DNA of 42,873 nt. Source: an uncultured Alphaproteobacteria bacterium (GTDB taxonomy: Bacteria; Pseudomonadota; Alphaproteobacteria; CAAHEQ01; UBA3637). Under the pieces are notes generated by a model. The model did no database searches. It saw only the letters and a program-made list of their open reading frames with translations, and had not been told where the DNA came from. The position numbers and the translations under genes were made by a program. The stretch is taken from NCBI GenBank assembly GCA_947629595.1, contig CANREI010000001.1, forward strand, positions 1 through 42,873. Reading direction: 5' to 3'. Shown piece after piece: positions 41 to 31,601 of the stretch; position 1 is the stretch's first letter, and the number at the start of each line of letters is the position of its first letter.

Positions 41-196
41 AAACGTACGATTTTTGCAACACTTTTTTTTAAAATTTTGAAAAAATTTTTATTTTGGTTG
101 AAAACAATTGATTTTTCGACTGTTTTTGAGTGCTTGATTTTGGCATTTTGAAGGCAATTTTGACCCCCGAATCCGCGTTGCATTAAAGGTACGTTT
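41..196. promoter_or_regulatory. Candidate invertible DNA switch 1 (inverton) upstream of pilin-like lectin gene
   Basis: Arms AAACGTACGATTTTTGCAAC (41-60) and GTTGCATTAAAGGTACGTTT (177-196) are 16/20 reverse-complementary, with exact termini AAACGTAC and GCAAC. They bracket 116 bp of AT-rich DNA ending 37 nt before the ATG at 234. The same module recurs at 29106-29262 and 31446-31601. Confidence 0.6.
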
Positions 197-233
197 ATTT
201 TATGCTGTTTCTATCAGCAACGGGAGTAAAAAA

Positions 234-27972: not shown

Positions 27973-27992
27973 ATGGGCTGACTGTTGAAATT

Positions 27993-28004
27993 TAGCGTTC
28001 GCTA
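27993..28004. repeat. 12-bp palindrome TAGCG-TT-CGCTA (site A of a pair)
   Basis: Perfect half-site dyad around a central TT. The partner at 28136-28147 is identical except that the central dinucleotide is AA. Confidence 0.8.
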
Positions 28005-28135
28005 TTTTTCCATATTATACTATGTCTTTTTGGAAATGCAATCTTTTTTAAGACTTCCGTTTAAAAAAATAGTTTTTTGAACAGATTATTTCATCTTCCG
28101 AAAAACGGTTTTTTATACATTTTTTTGTTGGTATT

Positions 28136-28147
28136 TAGCGAACGCTA
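28136..28147. repeat. 12-bp palindrome TAGCG-AA-CGCTA (site B of a pair)
   Basis: See site A. Lies 70 nt upstream of the recombinase ATG. Confidence 0.8.
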
Positions 28148-28217
28148 TCTTTCAATATCATTTCAGAAAACTATATGACTTCTGTTTCATAAACAAGTTA
28201 AACTAGGAGTTCCAAAA

Positions 28218-28811
28218 ATGACAGTTTATGCTTATATTCGTGTTTCAACCGATCGCCAGAATAACGATAATCAGCGGTTTCAAATTATCAATTACTGCAA
28301 AGAAAAAAATTTAAACATTGATTTGTGGATTGAAGAAATCATTTCAACCGGGCAGGCTTTGAAAAAAAGAAAATTATCGCGTCTTTTAAAAAAAGTAAAG
28401 GAAAACGATATTTTAATAACCTGTGAAATATCCCGCTTGGGAAGAAATCTCTTTGAAGTCATGGAAATTTTATCAACGTGTATGAAAAAAGGGTGTCGGG
28501 TTTGGACCATTAAAGATTGTTATACGCTCGGAAATGATATTCAATCAAAAGTGTTGGCTTTTGCCTTTGCTTTGGCGGCAGAAATTGAAAAACAGCTGAT
28601 ATCGCAACGAACAAAACAATCTTTGGCGCGTCGCAAGGCGGAAGGAAAGCCGATCGGGCGCATGAAAGGGGCTAAAAATAAAACGCACAAATTGGACGGC
28701 AAAGAAGAACAAATTGAAGATTTGTTTAAAAAGGGTGTTCCGATTGCGCAAATTGCCCGTATGATGAAATGTCATCGCGACACGATTTCCCACTTTTTAA
28801 AACCCGTTTAA
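28218..28811 (+). CDS. Serine recombinase / DNA invertase, Mpi-family-like
   Basis: AGGAG RBS. N-terminal YAYIRVSTDRQ (catalytic Ser10), [31 protein letters not shown], and C-terminal HTH (GVPIAQIARMMKCHRDTISHFLK). Size is typical of small invertases at 197 aa. Confidence 0.85.
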   Translation: MTVYAYIRVSTDRQNNDNQRFQIINYCKEKNLNIDLWIEEIISTGQALKKRKLSRLLKKVKENDILITCEISRLGRNLFEVMEILSTCMKKGCRVWTIKDCYTLGNDIQSKVLAFAFALAAEIEKQLISQRTKQSLARRKAEGKPIGRMKGAKNKTHKLDGKEEQIEDLFKKGVPIAQIARMMKCHRDTISHFLKPV

Positions 28812-29025
28812 AGAAATACGGTTTGTTTTTTCAGGTTGTGCGGAAAAAAAATGAGGCTTTGCACCTAAAAACAAATAGAAAAGCTATCATTTCGGCACAC
28901 TCTTTTATTTTCGGCGGGAAGTGCTGTCCCGTGAAACGTGGGACAGCGCGGTGTGTCGAAAATAAGGCGATTCGGTGCAAAACAATAAGTTTGCTGTAAA
29001 CTTTTCCCTCTGTCGGCGGGTGTGG

Positions 29026-29062
29026 GGAGGCAAAATTTAAGCCGCTCCGCTATGGGTCGATA
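29026..29062. repeat. Left copy of a ~37-bp inverted repeat flanking the second pilin-like cassette
   Basis: The reverse complement (TATCGACCCATAGCGGAGCGGCTTAAATTTTGCCTCC) aligns by eye with 31282-31318 (TATCGAAATAGAGCGGTGCGGCTTTAATTTATGCCTC) at roughly 85 percent identity with small gaps. Confidence 0.55.
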
Positions 29063-29105
29063 GAGGAAAAAATTGGTGTTTTTTTTAAGAGCAGTTGCAC
29101 AAATT

Positions 29106-29262
29106 AAACGTACGTTTTTTGCAACACTTTTTTTTGATTTTTTCAAAAAAAATTTATTTGGAGGTGTTTTTAATGCAATATCAACGGGTTATAAAAAGCC
29201 TGTTTCACCAATTTTTGAGGGTATTTTTGCCCCCGAAACCGCGTTGCATTAAAGGTACGTTT
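29106..29262. promoter_or_regulatory. Candidate invertible DNA switch 2 (inverton)
   Basis: Arms AAACGTACGTTTTTTGCAAC (29106-29125) and GTTGCATTAAAGGTACGTTT (29243-29262) are 17/20 complementary. The last ~30 internal nt resemble switch 1. It ends 38 nt before the ATG at 29301 and lies 295 nt downstream of the recombinase gene. Confidence 0.6.
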
Positions 29263-29300
29263 AATTGTATACTATTCGTATAGTGAAAGGGAGTCGGAAA

Positions 29301-31445: not shown

Positions 31446-31601
31446 AAACGTACGATTTTTGCAACACTTTTTTTTAAAATTTTGAAAAAATTTTTTACTC
31501 AAGTGTAATTTTTTGATTTTTAAAAATTTTTTTTACTTTTTCTTTCAGTGGTTGCAAGGGTCTGAAAAATGCAAAAAAAGCGTTGCATTAAAGGTACGTT
31601 T
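31446..31601. promoter_or_regulatory. Candidate invertible DNA switch 3 (inverton) upstream of the GIY-YIG gene pair
   Basis: Arms AAACGTACGATTTTTGCAAC (31446-31465) and GTTGCATTAAAGGTACGTTT (31582-31601). The first ~35 internal nt are identical to switch 1. Contains a plus-strand TTGAAA-16-TGTAAT promoter-like pair. Ends 56 nt before the ATG at 31658. Confidence 0.6.

Follow-up and report, generated by a model that had tools for sequence, protein, structure and literature searches.

Switch 1 is a 156-bp segment bounded by inverted repeats at positions 41-196 of the window, and the question it raises is whether it is an inversion switch for the pilin-like gene that follows it. If it flips, the further questions are which enzyme acts on it and in which orientation the gene is expressed. 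The window is the whole 42,873-nt stretch analyzed here. It is contig 1 of G000, the genome of a rabbit-gut alphaproteobacterium (1.34 Mb in 151 contigs, 77% complete), and it also encodes an alpha-type two-piece tmRNA. The start codon of the pilin-like gene is at 234, 37 nt past the right arm, which is the gap given in a preliminary description of the locus. The favored reading, held at a probability of about 0.78, is that switch 1 is an Mpi-type inversion cassette and one of a dispersed family.

Each arm of switch 1 is 20 nt long. The left arm (41-60) is AAACGTACGATTTTTGCAAC, and the reverse complement of the right arm (177-196) is AAACGTACCTTTAATGCAAC. The arms are complementary at 16 of 20 positions, as described earlier. 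The outer eight and inner five bases are exact, and mismatches fall at four of the seven central positions. The interior (61-176) is indeed AT-rich, with 29.3% G+C compared with 42.5% for the window. It starts with the A-end (61-95), AC-T8-AAAATTTTGAAAAAATTTTT, which is conserved in 76/76 modules, and finishes with the B-end (about 146-176), a loose GC palindrome and then CCCGAATCCGC. The hairpin of this B-end is no more stable than shuffled sequences (z = 0.48), and no intrinsic terminator was found in the module. A sigma-54 promoter was also considered for the interior and rejected, since the GG and GC positions differ among aligned module copies. Rfam searches gave no family matching the modules or the structured repeats upstream.

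Exact matches to the arm pattern, AAACGTAC-N7-GCAAC, number six in the window and represent the paired arms of three modules (Table 1). When up to two mismatches are allowed, eight matches are observed versus 1.5 expected, and none of 100 shuffles reaches eight. The three modules had been described as mosaics, and the comparison bears this out. The left 52 nt of switch 1 match switch 3 at 50 of 52 positions, and its right 52 nt match switch 2 at 45 of 52. The two orientations of a module are referred to here as state 1, with the B-end toward the gene, and state 2, with the A-end toward the gene.

Table 1. Positions of switch 1, its neighbors, and the related elements of the window.
Feature	Positions	Strand	Description
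Switch 1 left arm, type A	41-60	+	AAACGTAC-GATTTTT-GCAAC; likely crossover TA at 46-47, core AAACG-TA-CG
Switch 1 interior, class I	61-176	+	Conserved A-end, variable center, B-end
Switch 1 right arm, type B	177-196	+	GTTGC-ATTAAAG-GTACGTTT; likely crossover TA at 190-191; holds -35-like TTGCAT at 178-183
-10-like hexamer, outside the module	201-206	+	TATGCT, 17 nt past TTGCAT
Pilin-like gene, 446 aa	234-1574	+	Prepilin-like motif GRSMVEMLGVLAIIGVL
Separate 171-bp invertible segment upstream of the invertase gene	27985-28155	.	TAGCG-TT/AA-CGCTA repeats; inverted in other samples
Mpi-family serine invertase, 197 aa, candidate trans-acting recombinase	28218-28811	+	NF009949; Pfam Resolvase and HTH
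Switch 2, class II, before a pilin-like gene	29106-29262	+	State 1; same orientation in sample ERZ27249352
Switch 3, class III, before a pair of GIY-YIG-related genes	31446-31601	+	State 1; same orientation in three other samples

The modules of the window belong to a repeat family that extends across the genome. G000 contains 163 exact matches to the arm pattern, compared with 0 and 1 for the reversed control. These arms pair into 76 complete modules of 155-157 bp, and 11 lone arms are found mostly at contig ends. The modules are spread over at least 50 contigs, and nearly all are located 34-41 nt before a pilin-like gene. Their interiors form three classes (I, n = 50; II, n = 21; III, n = 5), and switch 1 is a member of class I. 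In an alignment of the 76 modules, invariance is at least 97% in the arms and in the A-end next to them, and the center is variable. The arms are thus far more conserved than the interior, which fits the selection on the arms that the preliminary description had proposed.

Each module is polar, with two different ends. The A-end is made up of the arm heptamer GATTTTT or GTTTTTT, followed by GCAAC-AC-T8-AAAATTTT. The B-end is composed of a GC-rich palindrome, CCCCGAATCCGC-GTTGC, and then the heptamer ATTAAAG. The arm pattern is also present in three other species of the genus (179 matches in G011, 54 in G015, and 26 in G017), and the remaining 17 genus genomes have at most one stray match each. 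One sister genome contains about 89 modules.

Several unusual arrangements are observed within the family. Hybrid modules of G000 carry A-type heptamers on both arms (C45:1824-1979 and C100:1989-2144) or B-type heptamers on both arms (C5:3996-4151 and C117:2462-2617), which suggests occasional exchange between modules or gene conversion. Contig C6 of G011 has three A-type arms exactly 4188 bp apart (33434, 37622, and 41810), the first two without a partner, and this trio could reflect either a tandem repeat of 4.2 kb or an invertible unit of larger size. The window also contains two strongly folding units on the + strand, at 28900-28970 and 29000-29072 (-36 and -34 kcal/mol; z = -5.6 and -4.6). 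These recur at least 23 and at least 28 times in the genome, respectively, and have no Rfam match. For the 29000-29072 unit, 20 of 28 copies are within 600 nt of a module arm.

Copies of the module are found in both orientations. About 70 G000 modules, including all three in the window, are in state 1. State 2 is observed in five places in the same genome: C20:16112-16267, C20:15529-15684, C28:7404-7559, C65:70-225, and a lone arm at C104:70. In these copies, the A-end and the A heptamer lie beside the -10 and leader of the gene, and the B-end lies beside the typical upstream flank. Their leaders equal those of state-1 paralogues. The sequence outside AAACGTAC is unchanged, and the sequence inside it, including the heptamers, is reverse-complemented. 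Junction searches gave six state-2 matches in G000 (five genuine), three in G011, one in G015, and three in G017. The corresponding state-1 matches number 61, 59, 18, and 0.

The inverted copies also locate the exchange. Among A arms, 82 of 84 have the heptamer that belongs to their interior end, and so do 71 of 73 B arms. The exchange therefore occurs inside the outer eight bases, AAACGTAC. Half-site tables give an imperfect palindrome, AAACG-TA-CG(A/T)TTT, which has A/T tracts on both sides and is centered on TA. This hix-like palindrome is likely the recombination site. It is offset from the 20-nt arms, and its centers in switch 1 would be the two TA dinucleotides in Table 1. The full left site of switch 1 probably spans about 34-59.

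The C20 contig carries further traces of rearrangement. A small-pilin gene is inverted between C20 of G000 and the orthologous locus on C9 of G011, with breakpoints at module arms. C20 retains a fused, degenerate arm, AAACGTCCGTTTTGCAAC, that combines the outer half of one site with the reverse-complemented flank of the next. The state-2 module at C20:16112-16267 precedes a 519-aa pilin-like gene. C20 and C45 were considered as alleles in opposite states. They are instead paralogues, because their 519-aa genes share only ~90% identity over the 5' end and are divergent beyond it.

A candidate recombinase is encoded in the window itself. The 28218-28811 protein scores 283 bits against the NCBIfam equivalog NF009949 ('master DNA invertase Mpi family'), where the cut-off is 272. 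The preliminary description had called this the only recombinase gene in the window, 28 kb from switch 1. The distance holds, with the gene starting 28.0 kb away, but the genome as a whole has three Mpi-like genes. The two paralogues share 53-55% identity and score 266.6 and 267.3 bits, just under the NF009949 cut-off. The number of Mpi-like genes per member of the genus ranges from one to six. Only G011 (98%) and G017 (93%), both of which bear modules, have an orthologue at or above 93% identity, and the 17 module-free genomes possess only paralogues of at most 58% identity. A close orthologue and modules therefore occur together in 3/4 module-bearing genomes versus 0/17 module-free genomes. 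The module-bearing genome without a close orthologue is G015, which is only 77% complete. Outside of the genus, the nearest relatives share 55-57% identity and come from three Bacteroidales MAGs and one labelled Clostridia.

The repeats point to the same family of enzymes. The Mpi repeat of Bacteroides fragilis is quoted as ARACGTTCGTN (PMC8375218). Arms of the forms AAACGTACGT, AAACGTACGA, and AAACGTACCT match this repeat at 8-9 of 10 positions, and the constant difference is a central A for T. Judged from these sequence comparisons, the 28218-28811 enzyme is most likely the invertase serving the modules. The trans-acting control suggested earlier gains support at the level of the family, with dispersed inversion cassettes and an Mpi-family serine invertase in one genome. 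The segment upstream of the invertase gene (27985-28155) is inverted in two of four other samples (L013 and L014), and DNA inversion is thus active in this species. This segment represents a second site class and is possibly a self-switch of the invertase.

The earlier proposal of an invertible switch is supported for the module family, but switch 1 itself is seen in a single orientation. The window, four other samples (L068-L071), and the orthologous locus of G011 all show state 1. L068 and L069 share the upstream context of the window and are 99.4% and 96.7% identical to it. In L070 and L071, the same gene body follows another module copy and another upstream context. Two other large pilin-like genes were followed on four contigs each. 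Seven of these eight contigs show state 1, and the eighth, which is truncated, has the B arm beside the gene. Taken together, the 12 further contigs with large pilin-like genes are in state 1. The sample contigs are consensus assemblies at 2-10x coverage and are blind to minority orientations, so we infer the flipping of switch 1 from the module family. A single orientation at switch 1 and on these 12 contigs does not point to rapid flipping. A scan of JGI metagenomes for the left junction specific to switch 1 returned no match.

The genes at this locus are themselves exchanged. In L076-L079, the upstream context of switch 1 stands before a different pilin-like gene (465 aa), which indicates that the locus swaps genes between strains. 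Comparison of L070, L071, and L076-L079 with positions 1-600 of the window places the right-hand breakpoints in the repetitive K/Q-rich leader coding region (about 268-576).

The targets of the modules are mainly pilin-like genes. The prepilin-like motif G-x-S-M-V-E-M-L-G is found in 82 reading frames of G000. Some 60 of them are large (400-700 aa), and each of the large frames starts 34-41 nt past a module. In the switch 1 gene, the motif is G/RSMVEMLGVLAIIGVL, with E at +5, and the Pfam N_methyl match is sub-threshold (E = 0.09). Pfam and PDB sequence searches found no lectin domain in this gene. The genome also encodes a prepilin peptidase and PilB-type ATPases.

One class III module has a special arrangement. 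It is located at C5:15634-15789 (2135-2290 in L042), between divergent pilin paralogues of 141 and 144 aa whose N-terminal 43 residues are identical, and G011 is arranged likewise. A -10 hexamer stands on each side of the module at equal distance, TATACT on one side and TATAAT on the other. The module looks like a toggle between alternative major pilins. Such an arrangement would be hard to explain unless the two ends of the cassette differ in activity.

At switch 1, the promoter-like elements are divided between the module and its flank. The -35-like hexamer is located in the right arm and the -10-like hexamer outside it, and the latter is followed by a ribosome-binding site, GGGAG (222-226), and the ATG. 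In a scripted test of the G000 gene-side flanks beside the B-end, 66 carry TAnnnT 16-18 nt past the arm TTGCA(T/A). Another five read TATACA. In these gene-side flanks, the ATG lies about 28 nt past the hexamer. Upstream flanks beside the A-end have TAnnnT in only 5 of 80 cases. For class III modules, the six gene-side flanks without a large pilin-like gene read TATAAT (twice), TATACT (twice), TACAAT, and TAGTAT. A promoter scan found no complete sigma-70-type promoter inside the module. The proposed split promoter matches the E. coli consensus weakly, at 7-8 of 12 positions, which is under the threshold of a generic promoter scan.

Class II interiors have a further feature. In switch 2 (29155-29290) and other class II modules, a GGAGG, an ATG, and a frame of roughly 35 codons (MQYQRVIKSLF...RCIKGTF) run through the B arm toward the gene. 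Fifteen of 17 copies keep the frame open. It could encode a leader peptide or have arisen by chance, and it suggests that transcripts may pass through the module in state 1.

Since the two arms carry similar -35-like hexamers, flipping would alter only the DNA upstream of the -35. In state 2, this DNA brings A8-GTG before TTGCAA, and in state 1, it is the GC-rich B-end. The best sigma-70-type promoter of the window, that of the tRNA-tRNA-tuf operon (35010-34982, - strand), reads A6-GTGC-TTGACA-17-CATAAT. Outside of the modules, A5-GTG-(N)-TTG occurs 43 times, compared with 5-17 for permuted controls, and in several cases the motif stands before a housekeeping gene and is followed by a suitably spaced -10. 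The A-end is conserved in all three module classes. State 2 is enriched among small major-type pilins, with 5/7 versus 3/61 for large genes (Fisher p = 1e-4), where the test entered three large state-2 genes and inspection confirmed only one of the three. The conservation of the A-end, its likeness to housekeeping promoters, and the enrichment among small pilins together favor state 2 as ON. It is rather probable, then, that state 2 is the ON state and that the assembled switch 1 is OFF. This contrast depends on an upstream element that we infer, both arms having a similar -35. The ON/OFF model is less clear for class III, whose B-ends have an A-tract as well.

The reverse assignment has to be weighed against this. 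The cassette would still invert, but the assembled state 1 would be ON, with the GC palindrome of the B-end or an internal promoter or leader driving the gene, and state 2, the rare orientation, would be OFF. Several observations agree with such an arrangement. TTGCAT-17-TATGCT exists in state 1, which is also the dominant state in the assemblies, and the ribosome-binding site, ATG, and ~35-codon frame of class II point to the gene in this state. State 1 is also the only state among the class III modules that precede non-pilin genes, and these have good -10 hexamers and a B-end A-tract. However, about 58 large adhesin-like genes would then be ON simultaneously in a ~1.7-Mb genome. The conserved end in all classes is moreover the A-end, which mimics the upstream half of housekeeping promoters, and it is state 2 that is enriched among small major-type pilins. 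A state-1 ON assignment is accordingly judged unlikely, and state 2 is retained as the probable ON state.

Two other explanations dispense with inversion altogether. The arms could be operator or promoter elements for a non-recombinase regulator, perhaps with DNA looping, so that the module is a non-flipping duplicated leader of a paralogous gene family. The arms do overlap promoter-like hexamers, and switch 1, like every other large-gene locus examined in other samples, has a single orientation. Such leaders are nevertheless at odds with the five G000 copies, and others in three sister genomes, that are exactly inverted in their interior and heptamers between unchanged flanks. The arms also match the Mpi repeat, an Mpi-family invertase co-occurs with the modules, and the 8 + 5 identical arm bases are too short for homologous inversion. 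An operator function without flipping is for these reasons very improbable. Alternatively, the modules could be MITEs, whose spread across the genome placed copies in both orientations. The uniform length (155-157 bp) and terminal inverted repeats of the ~80 copies would suit such elements, but there is no target-site duplication, and the flanks (...CAAAA / module / ATTTT...) form an inverted and not a direct repeat. The modules keep a constant position, 34-41 nt ahead of start codons that belong to a single gene family, orientation is 93:7 and not random, the outer half of each site is part of the conserved flank, and there is no associated transposase. An origin of the two orientations by MITE insertion is hardly credible, and inversion of the cassette remains the preferred explanation.

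The proposed inversion mechanism would proceed as follows. The Mpi-family invertase would bind the hix-like imperfect palindrome, AAACG-TA-CGNTTT, at each end of the module. Strand exchange at the central TA (46-47 and 190-191) would flip about 144 bp together with both of the differing central heptamers. The promoter would be split, where each arm provides a -35 (TTGCAT or TTGCAA) and the -10, start site, ribosome-binding site, and gene stay fixed outside. A flip to state 2 would set the A8-GTG upstream element beside the -35, as in the upstream half of housekeeping promoters. Expression would be limited to a few of the ~60 large pilin-like adhesin genes, with most of them silent, leading to combinatorial variation of the pilus-associated surface proteins.

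The broadest form of this proposal is tentative, and we give it somewhat less than even odds. It describes an invertible upstream-half promoter, in which a UP-like A-tract and -35 alternate with an inert GC-rich end before a fixed -10, in ~80-90 modules per 1.6-Mb genome served by one horizontally shared Mpi-family invertase. If true, pilus tip adhesins would be displayed combinatorially, with individual cassettes acting as toggles for divergent major-pilin alleles. The symmetry of the core TA would also let these sites invert or delete gene cassettes. The scale would be exceptional, with approximately one switch per 17 kb and variable pilin-like adhesins taking up ~8% of a reduced genome. To our knowledge, this would be the densest inversion-switch network known. 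The design would also be unusual, as the recombination site doubles as the -35 and the cassette holds only the upstream half of the promoter. The 156-bp cassette and the 197-aa invertase make a tractable system for how a serine invertase chooses among dozens of sites and for how promoter strength toggles without moving the -10.

Several known systems resemble the one described here. Moraxella Piv is a DNA inversion system that toggles two alternative pilin genes by inverting coding segments, and Piv is not a serine recombinase. The likeness lies in the C5 module between divergent pilin paralogues, though here only a promoter-proximal cassette would flip. The literature searched contained no paper on invertons in this lineage or in gut Alphaproteobacteria.

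Hin and Gin are closer in site and enzyme. The hix and gix sites are imperfectly palindromic with A-tract half-sites (AAACC-AA-GGTTT in hix), and exchange takes place at the central dinucleotide. The layout of AAACG-TA-CGTTT is alike, as is the resolvase-type catalytic domain with a C-terminal HTH. Hin and Gin are each limited to a single nearby segment, which contains or borders the recombinase gene, and they require a Fis-bound enhancer. In contrast, 28 kb separate the invertase gene from switch 1 here, and the targets are scattered over many contigs. The central TA is also symmetric here and thus gives the site no polarity.

Mycoplasma penetrans has 38 mpl (P35 family) genes, each behind its own short invertible promoter (PMC10502178, citing Horino 2003). 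The two systems share a large paralogous family of surface proteins, a small genome, and one switch per gene. They differ in their targets, which are lipoproteins in M. penetrans and pilin-like here, and their repeats are unrelated. The mpl recombinases have been reported as tyrosine-type.

The closest system is Mpi of B. fragilis, where one master invertase acts on 13 dispersed invertible regions, including seven capsular-polysaccharide promoters (PMC4747536). Both systems have a recombinase of the NF009949 family, many dispersed short cassettes, and surface structures as targets, and here too the enzyme would act in trans. The repeat core is ARACGTTCGTN there and AAACGTACGT/A here, and cassette sizes are similar, with 183-186 bp in B. 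intestinalis and 155-157 bp here. The central dinucleotide is TT there and TA here. The host differs as well, being an alphaproteobacterium and not a member of the Bacteroidales, and 76-89 cassettes in 1.3-1.6 Mb stand against the 13 Mpi targets of B. fragilis. Pilin-like protein genes replace the polysaccharide operons. The promoter is apparently divided between the cassette and a fixed -10 beyond it, while the Bacteroides promoter is located inside the cassette. The system described here would carry the Bacteroides strategy of a master invertase with many invertible promoters to a different phylum in the same gut habitat.
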